Below the pieces are notes generated by a model. The model ran no database searches. It was given only the letters and a program-made list of their open reading frames with translations, and was not told where the DNA came from. This document shows positions 19,890 through 28,503 of a stretch of 37,247 nt of DNA, piece by piece (position 1 is the stretch's first letter; each line of letters starts with the position of its first letter). The stretch spans positions 1 to 37,247 of the forward strand of contig CAYREE010000005.1 in assembly GCA_964423225.1 (NCBI GenBank), written 5' to 3'. Source of the DNA: an uncultured archaeon (lineage in GTDB: Archaea > Altiarchaeota > Altiarchaeia > IMC4 > SCGC-AAA252-I15). A program made the position numbers and the translations under genes.

Positions 19890-21365
19890 ATGGCAAAAAT
19901 ACTATTTCACGATACGACCCTAAGAGATGGGGAGCAGACGCCGGGTGTCAGCTTGACTCCCGACGAGAAGATAAAGATAGCTAAGGCCTTGGACGATCTT
20001 GGAGTCGATGTGATAGAAGCTGGTAGCGCGATAACAAGCGATGGAGAGCGTGAGAGCATAAAATGCATATCTACTGAAGGATTGAAGGCAGAAGTCTCAA
20101 GTTTCGCACGGATATTGAAAAGCGATATCGACTTGGCGTTAGGATGCGATGTACAATCCATATTTCTAGTGGTTCCGACAAGCGACCTTCATCTAAAGCA
20201 TAAGCTAAGGACTACAAGAGAGAAAATACTAGGGCAAGTCACGGAACTAGTAGGATACTGTAAGGATCATGGCGTTAAAGTTGACTTATGCTGCGAGGAT
20301 GGCTCTAGGACAGACCTGGATTTCTTGAAAAAAGTTATGAAGACTGGACTGAATGCTGGCATTGATCGTTTTACAATGGCAGATACTGTCGGCGTCCTCA
20401 ATCCTGAGCAGACCCAGGAATTATTCGGAAAGCTCACGAAGAATGCTAAGATACCAATTGGTTTCCATGGACACAATGATTTTGGAATGGCCACGGCAAA
20501 TACAGTGATGGCAGTTAAAGGTGGGGCAAGGATAGTCGATGTCACAATAAATGGATTGGGCGAGCGGGCAGGCAACGCTGCTCTTGAAGAGGTTGCAGTT
20601 GCATTAAGGCTTACGACCGGCCATAAATTCAATGTGAAGATAGAGAAACTCACTAAGATCAGTGAGATGGTGGAAAAATTGACTGGCATCCCGCTTCAAC
20701 CCAATAAGGCAGTTGTCGGAGAGCATGCATTCACCCATGAGGCAGGCATACATGTTGACGGCATATTGAAGAAACCGTCTACTTACGAGCCGATAAAGCC
20801 TGAGATAGTCGGAGGAAAGAGAAGATTCGTCTTAGGCAAGCATGTTGGATTCAAGTCTGTGAAAAGCATGTTGGAATCAGCGGGGATAGATATGGATAAG
20901 GATCAGATGGTGCAAGTCTATGAGCAAGTCAAGTATCTGGGCGACAAGGGGAAGAAAGTAACTTCCGTAGATCTTGAGACGATCGCTAACACCGTATTGG
21001 GTAAGAGTGAGGAGAGGGCTTTACATCTTGACGAGCTTGTAACTGTTGCAGGAAACAAGTTCACTCCGACAGCTTCAGTAAAGCTTCAAATGAACGGCGA
21101 TTCTGTTGTCACATCAAGCACGGGCACAGGCCCTGTTGATGCGGCCATCAATGCAATCAAGATAGCGACAAAAGATGTTCCATTCGAGCTTATCGAATAT
21201 CATGTGGACTCAGTCAGCGGAGGAACTGATGCGATGGTCAGCATTACTGTGAAGCTTAAGAGCAAGGGCAAGATGGTGACGGCTCAAGGAGTTGGCGCCG
21301 ACATTGTATTAGCATCTGTTGAAGCAATGATCAATGGCTTGAACTCGATTATGCTTAAGAAATAG
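19890..21365 (+). CDS. cimA: (R)-citramalate synthase (DRE-TIM metallolyase, LeuA/CimA family)
   Basis: DTTLRDGEQ, IEAGSAITS (archaeal CimA-type; LeuA has EAGFP), VVPTS, HxHNDFG, GERAGNA, HEAGIHVDG and a C-terminal regulatory domain with GPVDA. Confidence 0.88.
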   Translation: MAKILFHDTTLRDGEQTPGVSLTPDEKIKIAKALDDLGVDVIEAGSAITSDGERESIKCISTEGLKAEVSSFARILKSDIDLALGCDVQSIFLVVPTSDLHLKHKLRTTREKILGQVTELVGYCKDHGVKVDLCCEDGSRTDLDFLKKVMKTGLNAGIDRFTMADTVGVLNPEQTQELFGKLTKNAKIPIGFHGHNDFGMATANTVMAVKGGARIVDVTINGLGERAGNAALEEVAVALRLTTGHKFNVKIEKLTKISEMVEKLTGIPLQPNKAVVGEHAFTHEAGIHVDGILKKPSTYEPIKPEIVGGKRRFVLGKHVGFKSVKSMLESAGIDMDKDQMVQVYEQVKYLGDKGKKVTSVDLETIANTVLGKSEERALHLDELVTVAGNKFTPTASVKLQMNGDSVVTSSTGTGPVDAAINAIKIATKDVPFELIEYHVDSVSGGTDAMVSITVKLKSKGKMVTAQGVGADIVLASVEAMINGLNSIMLKK

Positions 21366-21371
21366 TATGGG

Positions 21372-21401
21372 TGGAGGATAATTGATCCTCCATTTTTTTT
21401 T
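21372..21401 (+). terminator. Hairpin plus T-tract terminator after cimA
   Basis: TGGAGGAT-aattg-ATCCTCCA perfect 8-bp stem followed by nine T, between convergent genes. Confidence 0.75.
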
Positions 21402-22920
21402 ATTTTTTATCTTGTTGCATTTCTCTAAGCCGTTCAGCTTCCATACCCCTATCATATTCAGCGAACAAATCTGTTGCTTTTCCAAACTTCATGAATCTGG
21501 GATTTGATGCAGCTGCAATATAGAACATGTTGGCCCGTCCATCCACGTCGCTCATGCATTTTAACTGGGGTAGATGACCGTCTGCACCTAATCTTGTCTC
21601 ATATGCGAATGATGCGATATTCTTGGTCTCAGCCCACTTGAGCATCTTATCATCACTCATACCTGTATAGTGAAAGTATGTGTAGACCCATGCATCATCT
21701 TTGATCTTCGTTAGTTCATCGCCCATAGGCTCTTTCACTCCCTTGAGAATATCTGCATTTCTTAAGATATCATCCCGTTCCTTGATCTTGGCTCCCATAG
21801 CAATATAATCTTCGTCATTATGTCCCGCTCCTTTTCCTCCACCGCGTTCGATCCATAACTCGAGGTCTATCCCGTCAGCTTTCGCCTGGTCAACGACTTT
21901 TTTTACTCCCGCTGGTGTGAGTGCGATACGATTCTCGAAATCCTTGATCTCTGCTGCTACTCCGAGAATTATCTTACCGTCTTGTGCGGTATATGGTACT
22001 TGTCCGATAGCGTCATCTGGACTAACATGAGTACGTTCAAAATATCCTGCAACTGCCTTATCAGTTACTTTTCCACCCCAAGTGTTTAACGCAGTCTTTA
22101 TTAGCGGGTCCTCGTCAAGGATATGTGTTCCCTGAGACCTTGCCTTGATTAACCGAATAGTATCCTCTAATGTTGCTGCTTCAAGCTGTTGTGATGCATA
22201 GCCTGCAGTATAGATAGAACCCGGCACGTTTGCGACAGCATAACCAGGAGATCCGCAAATGCATACGAATGGTTGGTTATGATTTGTAGCAGTTATTCCT
22301 TCGACTCCACCGCCCTGGTCGATCTGAGCATCAGCAATCACCAAAGCATTTGCTCCAACATCTGTCCGAGCCTGATTGATCGAGGCAAGCCTGTCCTGTG
22401 TCAATAATGTTGGTGCTCGCCCGCCTTTGACTAATGCGCCAAGGGCCACACCGATAGTGTCCTTTGAAGATAAAATCTCGTTTATCCTATCTTGAGCGCC
22501 CCCCTCATTCGAGTTTATGTATGTTACTCCATCTTCTCCAAACTCGTTTCTTCTGGTTGCAAGCACATCATCGTTTATATCTATGAATACTACGTTCGCT
22601 CCCATCTGGCGTGCGATCGTTGCAGTGCCTTTTCCAACGTCTCCTGCACCCCATGCCACTACGGTCTTGCCTTTGACATGTTCGAAAAGCTCTTGTTCAT
22701 CAGGTGCATTCGGAAAATTCTTAAATAATGGTTTGAGCTCTCGTCTATTAATCCTGTATCCTAGCCCTTCCCCCATATCATGGGGCTTACTATCTAATAC
22801 TCCATACAGAGTTGAGATAAGTTGAACTTGGCTCATGGCTCCATGTGAGACAGAAGCCCTTCCTGCAGGATAAGGACTCTCCTTCCTTCCTCCTTCCACA
22901 CTTTCAATATTTTGCGACAT
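21400..22920 (-). CDS. ald: Alanine dehydrogenase (AlaDH/PNT family), circularly permuted
   Basis: NAD-binding-domain motifs (WGAGDVG, IDIN, APTLLT, IDQGG, YAVANVPG, ALNTWGGKVT) come before substrate-domain motifs (LGVAAEIKDFENRIALTP, VKEP, YFHY, AYET, LPQLKCMS ... GR). ATG at 22920 preferred; the ORF is open to 22968. Confidence 0.85.
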   Translation of the reverse strand: MSQNIESVEGGRKESPYPAGRASVSHGAMSQVQLISTLYGVLDSKPHDMGEGLGYRINRRELKPLFKNFPNAPDEQELFEHVKGKTVVAWGAGDVGKGTATIARQMGANVVFIDINDDVLATRRNEFGEDGVTYINSNEGGAQDRINEILSSKDTIGVALGALVKGGRAPTLLTQDRLASINQARTDVGANALVIADAQIDQGGGVEGITATNHNQPFVCICGSPGYAVANVPGSIYTAGYASQQLEAATLEDTIRLIKARSQGTHILDEDPLIKTALNTWGGKVTDKAVAGYFERTHVSPDDAIGQVPYTAQDGKIILGVAAEIKDFENRIALTPAGVKKVVDQAKADGIDLELWIERGGGKGAGHNDEDYIAMGAKIKERDDILRNADILKGVKEPMGDELTKIKDDAWVYTYFHYTGMSDDKMLKWAETKNIASFAYETRLGADGHLPQLKCMSDVDGRANMFYIAAASNPRFMKFGKATDLFAEYDRGMEAERLREMQQDKK

Positions 22921-22976
22921 CGTATCAACTATCTGGAAGTTTGCAGTAATAAAATCCTTATGATTCAACTTTTATC

Positions 22977-23984
22977 CTACTTTACTACTAGTCTGATCAA
23001 TGATGTGAACGGTATCATCCTTCTAAATAAAACCGATTTAATGAATATCGTCAGGGATTTTACAGGCCATTTCATCACATGTCTGAATGCAACCAGGTCC
23101 ATCCAGTCGGCTGTATAGCGTTTCAACACTTTTTTATCATGTGGTTCTATGTCTTGGTCTTGAATATACTTCGAGTAGATCTGATTAATCAAACTATATA
23201 ATATTGTTAGCTCTTCTGGTTTTTCAAGTTTTTTCCCATTGATGAATCTGAATAGGTATTCGGAAGTACTGGCTGATGGTTCTATTCCTATTATCGTCTT
23301 TAACGCCATTCGATGTGTTTTCCTCCAGGACTCATACATGTTTCCATATTCTTTACTTGTTTTTGTCTGATCGTGTCTCCTACGTTTTATCAAATACTCG
23401 GATATGTTCGAGAATCTTGTTTTCGTGCTGAGCCTTACCCATAGGTCATAGTCTTCAGCAGTTACTTGATTATACGTAGTATTCCCATCAATGATATCAG
23501 TTCTCATCATCAATGAGGGATGGCATAGCTGACTAAGGAAGCAAAAAGTATAGCGTATCAAGGTATCAGATGAAAACAAATCCCATTTATTGATCGATTT
23601 TCCATGATCGTCTATGAATTGTATGTAAGAGCCTACGACTCCAACTTCAGGATTATTCTCAAGGTAATCCACTTGTTTCTCAAACCTTCTAACCTCGGAG
23701 ATATCATCAGCATCCATCCTGGCAATGTATCTCCCTGATGCTTTTCTAATGCCCCTGTTAAGAGATGAAGCGACACCCTGGATTTTCTCATTCTCTAGGA
23801 TTATGACGCGTTTATCAATCTCACAGAATTCATCAAGGATTTCTCCTGTATCATCTGTTGAACCATCGTTGATTATTATCAATTCGAAGTCTTTAAAGGT
23901 CTGGTTGATGATGCTTTCAATAGATCTTCTGAGATATTTCTCACAATTATACGTTGGAACTATTACGCTTACTACTGGGTCCAT
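22977..23984 (-). CDS. Glycosyltransferase family 2
   Basis: VSVIVPTYN, NDGSTD, YIARMDADD, HPS, AEDYDLW. ATG at 23984 preferred. Confidence 0.93.
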   Translation of the reverse strand: MDPVVSVIVPTYNCEKYLRRSIESIINQTFKDFELIIINDGSTDDTGEILDEFCEIDKRVIILENEKIQGVASSLNRGIRKASGRYIARMDADDISEVRRFEKQVDYLENNPEVGVVGSYIQFIDDHGKSINKWDLFSSDTLIRYTFCFLSQLCHPSLMMRTDIIDGNTTYNQVTAEDYDLWVRLSTKTRFSNISEYLIKRRRHDQTKTSKEYGNMYESWRKTHRMALKTIIGIEPSASTSEYLFRFINGKKLEKPEELTILYSLINQIYSKYIQDQDIEPHDKKVLKRYTADWMDLVAFRHVMKWPVKSLTIFIKSVLFRRMIPFTSLIRLVVK

Positions 23985-24076
23985 CGAATTCAATAGGTTT
24001 TCTATTATTAAAACAAGTGTTTTCAAATATATCTATAATATCATTTTTTATATCTAAAGGAAATATTGTATGCATT

Positions 24077-25324
24077 ATGTCAAATATCACTGAAAAAATC
24101 CTCTCGAAAAAGTCTGGGAAGAAAAATATCTCACCAGGAGACATAGTTGAAGCTGAAGTAGACTATGTCATGGTCAATGATGTTACCGGCCTTCCAGCCT
24201 TTAAGGTTTTCGAGGAATTCAATACTAATCCTATCGACGAGAAGACTGTATTGATACCTGATCATTATGTTCCGAATAAGGATGTGGCGTCAGCTAATCA
24301 GGCTAAGGCTATGCGGGATTTCGCAAGTAAATATGATGTCTCGAATTATTTCGAGGTGGGTCGAAGCGGTGTATGCCATCAGCTAATGATCGAGAAGGGT
24401 TTTGTAGCTCCCGGCAGGCTAATCGTCGGAGCTGACTCACATACATGTAGTTACGGTGCACTAGGTTGTTTTTCAACTGGTATCGGAAGCACAGAAGCAG
24501 CTGCAGTAATGGCCACTGGAAAGCTATGGTTCAGGGTTCCGGAGTCGATGAAGATCACGGTTGATGGACTGCTAGGCGATTATGTGATGGGAAAAGACAT
24601 AATCCTGCATGTTATCGGTGACATCGGTGTGGACGGGGCATTATACAAGTCTATGGAATGGTATGGTAGTTCAATAGAATCACTTGGTGTTGCAGACCGG
24701 ATATCAATCAGTAATATGGCGATCGAGGCAGGAGGAAAGGCAGGAATAATACCTGCTGATAATAAGGTCGATGAATACTTGAAAGATCGGGTTATTGGAG
24801 GCTATGAGAAAGTCTTTGCTGATAAGGACGCGGTTTATTCTGATATCCTGGATTATGATTCAAAGGATATTGTGCCAACTATTTCCGAGCCTTTCTTGCC
24901 TGAGAATTCTAAACCCGCTTCAGAATCCGATGTAGTAATAGATCAGGCATACATTGGTTCTTGCACGAATGGAAGAATAGAGGATTTTAGGATTGCCGCA
25001 AAAATACTGAAAGGCAAGAAGGTAGCTAAGGATGTTAGACTAATGATAGTCCCCGCCTCTCATGATATCATGGATCAGATGATAGAGGAAGGATTATACA
25101 AGGTCTTCAGCGATGCAAACGCGTATATCTCAGGACCTACGTGTGGTGCGTGTCTTGGCGGATACATGGGCGTTCTTGCCGATCAGGAAGTCTGTGTGAG
25201 CACGACTAATAGGAACTTCATAGGTAGGATGGGGCATAAGAACAGTAAAGTATATCTTGCGAATCCTGCTGTTGTCGCAGCATCAGCATTAACAGGGAGG
25301 ATAACGGATCCACAGGATCTATGA
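24077..25324 (+). CDS. leuC: 3-isopropylmalate/citramalate dehydratase large subunit
   Basis: TEKIL, DH, GVCHQ, GADSHTCSYGA, IGSCTNGR, CGACLGG, STTNRNF. ATG at 24077. Confidence 0.95.
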   Translation: MSNITEKILSKKSGKKNISPGDIVEAEVDYVMVNDVTGLPAFKVFEEFNTNPIDEKTVLIPDHYVPNKDVASANQAKAMRDFASKYDVSNYFEVGRSGVCHQLMIEKGFVAPGRLIVGADSHTCSYGALGCFSTGIGSTEAAAVMATGKLWFRVPESMKITVDGLLGDYVMGKDIILHVIGDIGVDGALYKSMEWYGSSIESLGVADRISISNMAIEAGGKAGIIPADNKVDEYLKDRVIGGYEKVFADKDAVYSDILDYDSKDIVPTISEPFLPENSKPASESDVVIDQAYIGSCTNGRIEDFRIAAKILKGKKVAKDVRLMIVPASHDIMDQMIEEGLYKVFSDANAYISGPTCGACLGGYMGVLADQEVCVSTTNRNFIGRMGHKNSKVYLANPAVVAASALTGRITDPQDL

Positions 25325-25617
25325 ATAAGATGACGGATATTACGATTAGAGACGAGTTGGCTTTAGAAAGAACGTATCTAGCAAAAGAAAGGACAGTACT
25401 AGCATATGCGAGAACCGGGATAGCCGCTATCACGCTCTCACTTGCTATAATCAAGCTTTTTGATATTAATCAACTAGAACAGATCCTAGTCATCATGTTT
25501 TTATTTGTCCCAGGATTAGTGGCTACATTATATGGTATAATCAAGGCATTCACTAGCCATAGAAAATACACTGATCTAGAAAAGAAGGTAGAGGAAGAGA
25601 TAAGCGAAGATGACTAA
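25321..25617 (+). CDS. DUF202 (YidH-like) small membrane protein
   Basis: RDELALERTYLAKERTVLAYARTG followed by two TMs. Overlaps both neighbours. Confidence 0.88.
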   Translation: MNKMTDITIRDELALERTYLAKERTVLAYARTGIAAITLSLAIIKLFDINQLEQILVIMFLFVPGLVATLYGIIKAFTSHRKYTDLEKKVEEEISEDD

Positions 25618-26101
25618 TATGATCGGAAAAACCTGGAAGTTTGGAAGTAACGTTGATACTGACCAGATCATACCTGCTGAATACCTTGTGACAGGAGATC
25701 CGAAAGAACTTGCAAAACACGCTTTTGAAAAAGTTCGAACAGAGTTCGCATCGGAAGTTAAACCTGGGGACGTTATAATTGCAGATGATAACTTCGGTTG
25801 CGGATCCAGCCGGGAACATGCGCCAAGGGCATTGATGGGTGCGGGAGTATCCTGTGTTATCGCCAAAAGCTTTGCACGCATCTACTTTAGAAACAGCATC
25901 AACCTAGGATTTCCAGCTATTGAATGCGATGTACAAGCCTCGGATGGTGATGAGATAGAAGTAGACTATTCTGGGGGGAAAGTCCGGAACCTCACCACTA
26001 AAAAAGAGTATGAATTCAAACCGCTACCACCATTCCTATTAAACCTGATGGAATCAGGTGGGCTTGTAGAATACGTGAAAAAACAATTAGAAAAAAAATG
26101 A
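25610..26101 (+). CDS. leuD: 3-isopropylmalate/citramalate dehydratase small subunit
   Basis: [30 protein letters not shown]. Confidence 0.96.
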
Positions 26102-27162
26102 AATACAAGATCGCAGTTTTACCTGGAGACGGGATCGGACCCGAGATCATGGATGAAGCAATAAAGGTTCTTGATACAGTCACAAAGAAACAATCAATAG
26201 AATTCGAGTATACTGAAGCAGACATCGGTGGGATTGCCATAGACAATCATGGAGCGGCTCTACCAAAGGAGACGATCAAGGTATGCGAATCATCTGATGC
26301 AATACTGTTGGGTGCTGTTGGAGGACCAAAATGGGAGTCCCTACCACCGGAAGAACAACCTGAGCGCGCTGCCTTACTTCCTCTCAGAAAGCATTTCGAC
26401 TTATACGCCAATCTTAGACCCGCAAAGATTTTCATGGAGTTGTCTGGAAGCTCTCCGCTAAAGGAGGAGATAATCGGGGATGGCTTGGATATACTCATTG
26501 TCCGTGAGCTTACTAGTGGAATATATTTTGGCCAACCAAAGGGTATTGAAGGTGATAAAGGCTATGATACTCTAGTATACAAAAAGAGCGAGGTAGAAAG
26601 AATAGCACGTCTCGCATTTGAAGCCGCAATGAAACGAGGCAAAAAGTTAACTTCAATAGACAAGGCTAATGTGTTAAGCTCGATGGTATTGTGGAGGCAG
26701 ACTGTAAACGAGGTTTCGAAAGACTATCCTACTGTCGAATACTCTGATATGTATGTTGACAATGCATCACAACAACTCGTCCGCAATCCAAAACAGTTCG
26801 ACGTCATCCTAGCAGGAAACATGTTCGGAGACATCTTAAGCGATGAGGCAGCAGTAATAACCGGGAGTCTTGGAATGCTTCCGTCAGCAAGCCTGAATGA
26901 ATCCAATTTCGGATTATACGAGCCAGTACACGGATCTGCACCAGATATAGCAGGTCAGGGCAAGGCAAATCCAATAGCACAAGTCATGTCAGCTGCCATG
27001 ATGTTGAAATACTCATTCGATCTTGATGAGGAGGCAAAGATGATAGAAGATTCAGTACAAAAAGTATTATCTGATGGTTATCGTACTTCCGACATAATGC
27101 AAGAGGGTAAAAAACTCGTTGACACTAAAAAGATTGGAGACCTGATTGCAGGTGGAATCTGA
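26098..27162 (+). CDS. leuB: 3-isopropylmalate dehydrogenase (bacterial-type)
   Basis: [68 protein letters not shown]. Confidence 0.96.
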
Positions 27163-28503
27163 TGGTTGACTCTTTAAAAATCATATTATTGGTTTTTTTT
27201 TCATTCTCAATTATCCTTTATTCATTCTATTCTGATAGTCCTGTCGAAAGAAGGCCAAACATTATCCTGATTCATGTGGATGCCTTAAGGCCTGATCATC
27301 TTGGATTTAATGGATATCCTCGTAACACCAGCCCGAATATTGACGCATTAGCCCGGGAAAGTATTGTATTTACTAATGCTTATTGTGTGTGGCCTCATAC
27401 TAGTCCCTCAGTCGCATCAATGATGACATCTCTTTATCCATCAGACACAGAAGTTTATGGTGGTATATCTCCTCTAAAAAAGGGGGTTGATACTTTGCCG
27501 GGAATATTAAGGGATATGGATTATCGGACAGTAGGTTTTGTTTCTAATGCAAACCTGGATAAGACTTTTAATTTTGACCAGGGTTTTGAAGAGTATCATG
27601 AAGTATGGCGTAAGAGAGCTGATGGTTCAAGGGATCGTTGGATTGGATATGATGCAAAAACCGTTACAAATGACATACTCTTTTGGCTGAATTGGTTTGA
27701 TAGCGAACCGTTCTTCCTATGGGCGTTCTACATTGACCCACACGGGCCATATACACCCCCCACCCCTTATGATACTATGTTTGAAAACGATATTCTTTAT
27801 AATCAGACGGTCGATAAGCTTAGACCCAAAGATATTCGAAGGTTTGAATTATACAATTCAACTAGCTTGAATCTTTATCTTCAAAGATATGATGGAGAGA
27901 TACGATACACTGATTATTGGATCGGGGAATTATTGACAAAATTGAAGGAAAAAGGATATTATGATAATAGTATCATCATCTTAACATCTGATCATGGAGA
28001 AGCGATAGGTGAAGATGGTCGCTATATGCAGCATGGTAAAAGCATACATGAACCACAAGTGAGAGTACCATTGCTAATAAGGATACCTGGCGAAAGAAGG
28101 CAGACTATTAGAAACCCAGTCTCCCAGATCGATCTGACACCCACAATCCTCGATCTTGCAGGAATTAATACTCCACCAAACCTTGCTGGTAAAAGCCTTA
28201 CACCACTCCTGGATGGAGAAGCTGATTATTGGCCGATTACGCGATATTGTGGGGATGATAGATGGGGACATGAAGATAGTCAAGGATTTATTGAGTGGGA
28301 AAACTCATCTGGTAAACCTGTCAATTAGGGGTGAAAAAAAGATTAATCCTAAAAAATTTAATAGAGACAAGTTCAAAAAGCTTAAGAATAAAATATCCTT
28401 AAGAGAAAGTGATTTTGCTTATGATGCGAAAACAAATGGTTCTATCACATATTTAGATGAGGAATCGATTAAACAACTCATGGAACTAGGATATATTGGA
28501 TGA
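27162..28503 (+). pseudogene. Membrane-anchored sulfatase-like hydrolase/transferase, frameshifted near 28220 (or an assembly error)
   Basis: PNIILIHVDALRPDHLG, DPHGPY, YDGEI, TSDHGE, IDLTPTILD in frame 27162..28328. The family-typical tail (MKIV ... LDEESIKQLMELGYI) lies in the +1 frame ending at 28503. Confidence 0.75.

Follow-up and report, generated by a model that had tools for sequence, protein, structure and literature searches.

A natural circular permutant of the alanine dehydrogenase family in Candidatus Altiarchaeota

The stretch of DNA analysed here (the window) is 37,247 nucleotides of an uncultured archaeon of the Altiarchaeota (contig CAYREE010000005.1 of GenBank assembly GCA_964423225.1), and the gene under study lies on its minus strand at positions 21400..22968. 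The longest open reading frame (ORF) at this place starts with TTG, is uninterrupted over 522 aa and encodes the two domains of the alanine dehydrogenase (AlaDH) family in swapped order, as had been proposed when the sequence was first annotated from its letters alone (hereafter the first-pass annotation). Pfam profiles placed AlaDh_PNT_C, the Rossmann domain that binds nicotinamide adenine dinucleotide (NAD), at aa 98-303 (22060..22677, minus strand; E 6.8e-23, 81.7 bits against a cut-off of 23) and AlaDh_PNT_N, the core of the substrate-binding domain, at aa 336-475 (21544..21963, minus strand; E 5.9e-24, 85.3 bits against a cut-off of 30.4). Both families of the AlaDh_PNT superfamily, PF05222 and PF01262, are thus present above their gathering cut-offs, in the order AlaDh_PNT_C then AlaDh_PNT_N, the reverse of the family norm and the order predicted for this check. 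The gap between the two aligned blocks, aa 322-333 (21970..22005, minus strand), is a linker of ~12 aa that forms the permutation junction, and here the old C-terminus is linked to the old N-terminus, so that the native termini are joined as the first-pass annotation had it.

A phmmer search against PDB gave the same arrangement with the AlaDH of T. thermophilus (2eez_A), query residues 101-321 corresponding to chain residues 167-367 and query residues 334-479 to chain residues 2-138. These limits agree with the first assignment of aa ~100-320 to the Rossmann domain with the normal C-terminal segment, and of aa ~333-490 to the normal N-terminal domain, and the E-values of both Pfam and phmmer are far beyond chance. 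All the motifs quoted at that time were found in the translation, namely WGAGDVG (106-112), FIDIN (128-132), IDQGG (216-220), VANVPG (245-250) and ALNTWGGKVT (293-302) in the Rossmann part, and LGVAAEIKDFENR (335-347), VKEP (411-414), YFH (431-433), AYET (455-458) and MSDVDGR (472-478) in the second part. The top NCBIfam model was alaDH (TIGR00518), with 167.7 bits split over two swapped stretches, and the models for the transhydrogenase alpha subunit scored far below their cut-offs (NF006942, 50.7 bits against 383; TIGR00561, 37.1 bits against 444.4). The marks of a circular permutant, namely exchanged order of the two parts in one uninterrupted chain, the same fold and recurrence in independent genomes, were all found, and the ORF encodes a genuine, naturally permuted AlaDH-family protein that retains the catalytic residues.

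The continuity of the sequence at the junction was seen in Logan contigs of two separate runs, which bridge 21970-22005 with 0 differences (X2 record 6, 21811-22504; X1 record 3, 21881-22107) and have no joints or loose ends, at a depth of ~2-4x per run. At ~21960-22020, where the first-pass annotation had suggested a check of coverage, these contigs support the permuted order. The ratio of nonsynonymous to synonymous substitution rates (dN/dS), calculated between the members at loci L063 and L012 (86% identical), was 0.16 over 468 codons. The values for the two parts of the permuted gene were 0.17 and 0.15, and that of the adjacent synthase gene was 0.07. The permuted gene is under purifying selection, and its ORF is intact in all full-length permutants.

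Inspection of the alignment with the homologous proteins described below suggests that translation does not begin at TTG 22968. In this alignment P0002, P0005 and P0006 begin at the position of M17 (ATG 22920), P0003 and P0004 begin at that of M45 (ATG 22836), and aa 1-45 are unconserved and modelled with a predicted local distance difference test (pLDDT) value below 50. The true start is probably ATG 22920, giving a coding sequence of 21400-22920, with ATG 22836 as the alternative. The following segment, aa 45-100 (22669..22836, minus strand), was defined by profile and model; it carries the motifs GEG..RI.R...LF..FP.AP and is modelled as a beta-hairpin and two helices ahead of the Rossmann beta-1 strand. 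Its profile matched, at E<1e-3 among 267 proteins, the 8 permutants only, and homology in sequence to the canonical linker was rejected on that ground. The link is structural only, aa 70-98 of the model superposing on canonical residues ~150-170 (VIA-align). The novel N-terminal extension of ~80-100 aa of the first-pass annotation is accordingly family-specific at aa 45-100, but it is shorter than supposed and aa 70-98 replace canonical structure.

At the other end of the chain, the hinge motif LPQLKCMSDVDGR together with a helix (aa 469-487) and a strand (aa 493-497) occupies 21478..21570 of the minus strand and corresponds to canonical residues ~127-150. This segment, with the hinge motif and the NAD domain's first helix, is now the chain end and includes the clade-specific D476, at the position of the canonical Ala137. 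The alignment and model place a helical tail after it, at aa 498-522 (21403..21477, minus strand). The tail had been noticed at first annotation and is indeed present, but it is particular to the window protein among the 8 aligned members, the seven others ending near aa 495-500.

The AlphaFold2 model, built from the 8-sequence family alignment, had a mean pLDDT of 79.6 and a predicted template modelling score (pTM) of 0.81, and pLDDT fell below 50 only in aa 1-45. When compared by VIA-align, residues 70-325 of the model superposed on residues 150-373 of M. tuberculosis AlaDH (2vhw_E; Z 14.9, root-mean-square deviation (rmsd) 3.2, 214 aligned) and residues 333-476 on residues 1-137 (2vhy_A; Z 12.2, rmsd 1.9, 136 aligned). 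The two blocks jointly span nearly the whole canonical chain in swapped order, and the two-domain AlaDH fold was thus found block by block, for residues 1-137 and 150-373. The best Foldseek matches in PDB were likewise AlaDHs, each covering one half only (226 or ~138 columns), and a search of the ESM Atlas returned canonical AlaDh_PNT clusters only, with scores of 0.88-0.91. D-2-hydroxyacid dehydrogenases, McyI and DpaA also appeared among the Foldseek and VIA-align results, with model residues ~100-495, 260-280 aligned positions and an rmsd of ~5 A; these we read as the generic pairing of two alpha/beta domains and set aside.

According to structural work on AlaDH (PMC4691113), the substrate-binding domain of the canonical enzyme consists of residues 1-128 and 309-371 and the NAD-binding domain of residues 129-308, with two joining helices; the canonical enzyme is described there as a dimer or a hexamer. 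Combining these limits with the block alignment, the new termini lie at about canonical residue 150, ~15-20 residues within the NAD-binding domain. The break comes after the hinge motif and the first NAD-domain helix, and the hairpin preceding the GxGxxG strand lies beyond it. The first-pass annotation put the new termini at the inter-domain crossover, which is near the position found, but the break falls inside the NAD-binding domain after its first helix.

Equivalence of single residues was determined through the alignment to 2eez and is given in M. tuberculosis numbering. The residues for catalysis and substrate binding in AlaDH were all found, R347 corresponding to Arg15, K412 to Lys75, H433 to His96, E457 to Glu118, D217 to Asp270 and N247 to Asn300. 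These six, D130 and the GxGxxG motif are invariant in 8/8 aligned permutants, so that the retention of the substrate-binding Arg and Lys and of the catalytic His and Asp, as first noted, holds for the family. For NAD binding, G107, G109 and G112 are conserved and are followed by the acidic D130 after beta-2, which we take, from general knowledge of Rossmann folds, to be the residue for NAD specificity. A second comparison took 70 canonical AlaDHs, selected the positions at which at least 80% of them agree, and examined these in 10 permutants; R15, K74, E75, H95, E117, M132, S133, D269, H282 and N299 were unchanged in 10/10.

The position of Ala137 (A136 in this comparison) behaved differently, being Asp476 in 10/10 permutants and Ala in 69/70 canonical AlaDHs. 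In the account of M. tuberculosis AlaDH (PMC4691113), the nicotinamide ring is contacted by Met133, Ser134, Ala137, Ile267, Asp270 and Met301, and mutation of His96 and Asp270 is described, citing Agren et al., as abolishing activity. Among the equivalents in the nicotinamide pocket, M472, S473 and I216 are kept, Met301 is replaced by Val248 and Ala137 by Asp476. The change of MSEVAGR to MSDVDGR, suspected from the beginning of altering specificity, is therefore confirmed and made sharper, as the changed Ala is, by the same account, a nicotinamide contact and is Asp in every permutant compared.

Homologues with the same order were found in several kinds of data. When 5.8 billion proteins were searched through a word index, the 120 matches listed included 8 (P0001-P0008, 430-522 aa, 39-61% identity) that spanned 80-100% of the query co-linearly, and the other 112 were canonical AlaDHs of ~370 aa covering 27-32% of it. 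An exhaustive search of 1.84 billion representatives gave seven proteins with E <= 1e-30, and 5 of the 150 matches listed there (P0004, P0005, P0006 and the fragments P0121 and P0123) aligned as a single co-linear stretch. When the halves were scored separately, 9 of 267 fetched family proteins were permuted, 253 canonical and 5 single-domain; after further search the numbers were 9, 372 and 5 of 386. At the DNA level, full-length co-linear matches occurred in 2/46 genome-contig loci, both titled Candidatus Altiarchaeota archaeon, and in 7/15 metagenome loci, which collapse to 4 distinct loci; together with the window these amount to 7 distinct lineages. The match lengths (~1.0-1.1 kb or less) and E-values of the remaining 44 genome-contig and 8 metagenome loci fit canonical genes. 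Thus, the same domain order in independent genomes, which the first-pass annotation had named as a check, exists on independent contigs at 39-61% identity. All the named permutant records are Candidatus Altiarchaeota, and P0006 and P0121, the sole permutant proteins with a database name, are both called 'hypothetical protein'.

Within the phylum, the permuted gene was found in 3 of 61 genomes, the window's own and two out of five from a second genus. No match to the permuted gene was obtained in G001, a relative from the window's genus that is 89% complete, the window's genome (84% complete) gave a single PF05222 gene and no canonical ald, and with P0121 as query none of the 61 genomes yielded a canonical AlaDH at E <= 1e-30. 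For the phylogeny, the N and C segments were aligned separately and concatenated, and a tree of 82 rows was calculated by a quick IQ-TREE run with the PntA from locus L010 as outgroup. The permutants were monophyletic, with a Shimodaira-Hasegawa-like approximate likelihood ratio test (SH-aLRT) value of 97 when all 11 rows were counted and of 99 when P0121 was left out (10 rows), and a long stem branch (0.89 + 0.92) leads to the clade. The permutation arose once, and the permutants are rare and patchily inherited within one Altiarchaeota family.

Two sequences met in this survey deserve description. P0121 is a Candidatus Altiarchaeota protein of 366 aa from a genome outside the 61 compared here; it is permuted and deep-branching, has motifs (GIPKEIK, PMSWVAG) more like the canonical ones, and lacks the GxGxxG region. 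Its gene call may be truncated, the copy may have decayed, or the sequence may represent an early-branching form. The other, the one weak family match among the relatives inspected, is L010:1498-2634 (plus strand) of genome G020, and it proved to be a PntA-type gene in canonical order with the motif RAQSMDVLSS, preceded by a response-regulator-like ORF. G020 also has the permuted gene.

The simplest interpretation of these results is that the gene encodes a real, functional and naturally permuted dehydrogenase of the AlaDH family, which we consider quite probable. The chain would start at about canonical residue 150 before the GxGxxG strand, run through the NAD domain and the C-terminal helices, cross the linker of ~12 residues into the old N-terminal domain, and end with the hinge motif and the first NAD-domain helix, the family-specific segment at aa ~45-100 standing in for the canonical hairpin region. 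Because the carboxylate clamp of Arg and Lys, the catalytic His and Asp, the GxGxxG motif and the Asp after beta-2 are kept, its chemistry would be the NAD(H)-dependent, reversible oxidative deamination and reductive amination of a small 2-oxo acid. Pyruvate and L-alanine are the most likely substrates, an assignment that we favor by a small degree. The invariant Asp at the position of Ala137 may shift the specificity. As for origin, the permuted form presumably arose when a tandemly duplicated gene was fused in frame and shed its outer parts.

The genes around the permuted gene were then compared with those at the other loci. Its convergent neighbour (19890..21365, plus strand) encodes a LeuA/CimA-family synthase scoring 630 bits on NF002085 against a cut-off of 517. 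This gene passes the 2-isopropylmalate synthase subfamily cut-off, its best score, and lies below both equivalog cut-offs for citramalate synthase; the convergent synthase of the first-pass annotation is there, but the label cimA was not established. The 34-bp gap between the two genes contains a terminator-like hairpin with a T-run (21369..21395, plus strand), identified by pattern match only, 3 such patterns being found against 1.8 expected in shuffles. Directly upstream of the permuted gene and on the same strand is a family-2 glycosyltransferase (GT2) gene (22977..24026, minus strand), and divergent from this pair are the homologues of leuC, leuD and leuB (24080..27162, plus strand), followed by a sulfatase-family gene (27162..28328, plus strand).

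The permuted gene is antisense between the LeuA/CimA-family synthase and leuC in the window, at L012 and at L063/L062, and at L057 it adjoins leuC, where the contig ends. With L057 included, this association holds for 4/7 distinct loci across both subclades. The neighbours at the other 3/7 are ApbE/SufBD, an MscS-type channel with a cupin, and ORFs without Pfam matches. Among 15 loci of relatives with the orthologous synthase, leuC follows directly downstream on the same strand in 6 and the permuted gene in 1; a leuB-like gene follows in 1, and in 7 none of the tested neighbours was found within 1.5 kb. This picture suggests that the permuted gene entered a synthase-leuCDB operon long ago in antisense orientation and was afterwards lost or relocated; it would have been lodged there ancestrally, antisense between the synthase gene and leuC, and inherited patchily. 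Since all the loci come from related archaea, the association with the synthase and leuC is only suggestive.

Several further features of the region and its counterparts were recorded. Only in the window genome is the permuted gene separated from leuC by the GT2 gene; at L012, L057 and L062/L063 the gap is ~100 bp. The leuC-leuD gap here is ~285 bp (25325-25609) and is overlapped by an antisense ORF of 101 aa (25576-25881), and in the relative at L074 ~20 bp separate the two matches. The sulfatase gene, an unusual partner of a leu cluster, shares one base with the end of leuB. A second LeuA/CimA-family paralogue, 46% identical to the window synthase, is present on another contig (G000:C16:22435-23904, minus strand), and most relatives have two copies of this family. 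In G001, the orthologous synthase (L073:3286-3942, minus strand; 84% identity) is followed by unrelated ORFs in place of the permuted gene and leuC, indicating that the region is rearranged there relative to the window.

Several points weigh against a functional permuted AlaDH. The 167.7 bits on TIGR00518 are below its equivalog cut-off of 391.85, and the co-linear N-then-C alignment expected of an alaDH equivalog was not found; each half is no more than ~27-37% identical to canonical AlaDHs. The clade departs from the canonical residue at K72, F91, L94, L96, A97, L106, A136 (to D), M257, V304, T307 and Y319, 11 positions in total, and because the change at A136 touches the cofactor site, the substrate or the kinetics may differ. 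The fold match consists of two blocks superposed separately and not of one permutation-aware superposition, and only 8 sequences fed the model. The tree came from a quick search and does not fix the attachment of the clade among canonical AlaDHs. Both runs that bridge the junction belong to a single study, possibly the window's own source. Finally, the fetched proteins were screened for a length above 480 aa or for more than 2 domain matches, and none of the 18 listed, 4 of them permutants, had the N-C-N-C layout of a duplication intermediate; the long non-permuted ones were all N-then-C within larger proteins.

The main alternative, possible if clearly less favored, is that the same permuted scaffold is not an alanine dehydrogenase and takes another 2-oxo or amino acid. 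Candidates are 2-oxobutyrate, the branched-chain 2-oxo acids from LeuA/CimA-LeuCDB, or a substrate whose cationic side chain pairs with Asp476. The Asp in place of the nicotinamide-contacting Ala and the ten other changed positions are what such an enzyme might show, as are the long stem branch and the TIGR00518 score under the cut-off, and the position between synthase and leuC in 4/7 loci of both subclades speaks for it as well. Against this, all the residues that bind the carboxylate of pyruvate and those of catalysis are unchanged, the permuted gene is antisense to the leu genes and is not co-transcribed with them, 3/7 loci have unrelated neighbours, and synteny among related archaea was perhaps inherited rather than functional. 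Moreover, two IlvE-type aminotransferases (Aminotran_4) encoded in the window genome are already available for the last step of branched-chain amino acid synthesis, which also weakens the specific proposal of a branched-chain amino-acid dehydrogenase replacing IlvE. The same genome encodes glutamine synthetase (GS) and glutamate synthase (GOGAT), on which ground a role as the sole route of ammonium assimilation was rejected; the glutamate dehydrogenase (GDH) family gave only a marginal match of 24.7 bits.

A bolder version, which we consider doubtful, is that the permutation itself made a new enzyme, the free hinge helix and the invariant Asp having given a different substrate or cofactor geometry. 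Such an enzyme may, for example, carry out reductive amination of 2-oxobutyrate or the branched-chain 2-oxo acids produced by the flanking LeuA/CimA-LeuCDB genes. If true, Altiarchaeota would be able to enter or leave the isoleucine/leucine pathway through a dehydrogenase, a route that is not known elsewhere.

It is quite improbable that the gene is a decayed or non-catalytic relic, a regulatory protein that binds NAD, or a component like transhydrogenase domain I. The presence in 3/61 genomes is patchy, the distant P0121 lacks its GxGxxG part and one relative carries PntA-type genes of canonical order (L010), as might be expected of these explanations; however, the gene is under purifying selection, K74, H95 and D269 are invariant in permutants and absent from the PntA sequence, the pntA models give 37-51 bits against cut-offs of 383-444, and all full-length members have an intact ORF. 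An assembly error that merged two ald copies, tandem or separate, into a chimera, conceivable in a fragmented metagenome-assembled genome of 245 contigs and 84% completeness with a junction depth of ~2-4x per run, was rejected as having a negligible chance, because at least 7 distinct DNA loci, and additional proteins of other assemblies, show the C-then-N order with identities of 39-61%, the contigs of two runs cross the junction without differences, joints or loose ends, dN/dS is similar in both halves, and the genome, with its single PF05222 match, holds no canonical ald as a source of the pieces.

A functional permuted dehydrogenase of the AlaDH family is not a new kind of biology, as circular permutation is known in many families. 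Natural circular permutants nevertheless reveal which connections in a fold are dispensable, and in the present case the cut is inside the NAD-binding domain beside the open-closed hinge, yet purifying selection persists. AlaDH is heavily used in the biocatalytic production of amino acids and has been studied as a drug target, and a protein in which the hinge helix is free, the domains are continuous and the active site has one more Asp offers a ready test of topology against domain closure, cofactor positioning and specificity. Its relevance to protein evolution and to the engineering of amino-acid dehydrogenases is moderate, and it adds an unannotated enzyme to the metabolism of uncultivated Altiarchaeota.

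Among known systems, N5-(carboxyethyl)ornithine synthase (CEOS) and the L-lysine-forming saccharopine dehydrogenase are two-domain enzymes of the AlaDh_PNT fold with NAD(P)-linked C-N chemistry and canonical order. A CEOS cluster appeared at rank 26 in the ESM Atlas (score 0.89), and neither enzyme was among the significant NCBIfam or PDB sequence matches, the resemblance being much below that to AlaDH. No account of a permuted AlaDH was found in the open-access PMC and bioRxiv literature, to which the search was limited; the InterPro/Pfam architecture tables may list it uncommented. The permutation appears to be undescribed for this family, in line with the first-pass annotation. Domain I of the proton-translocating NAD(P) transhydrogenase (PntAA) belongs to the same AlaDh_PNT superfamily as the permutant. 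In some eukaryotic transhydrogenases of ~1,080 residues, the SeqCP report gives a permuted order of dI, dII and dIII over the whole protein (PMC9763678). The transhydrogenase permutation reorders modules, unlike the exchange of two halves within an AlaDH-like unit seen here, and the permutant keeps the AlaDH catalytic residues that are missing from the PntA at L010.

The closest known system is canonical L-alanine dehydrogenase (EC 1.4.1.1; Rv2780, 2VHW/2VHX; 2EEZ; TIGR00518), which has the same two Pfam domains. The permutant resembles it in the folds of both blocks (Z 12-15), in the hinge motif LPxLxPMS, in the equivalents of Arg15, Lys75, His96, Glu118, Asp270 and Asn300, and in the GxGxxG motif with the NAD-type Asp after beta-2. 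It differs in being permuted at about residue 150, in the linker and the family-specific N-terminal segment, in the change of Ala137 to Asp together with ten other conserved positions, and in an identity of 27-37% per half.

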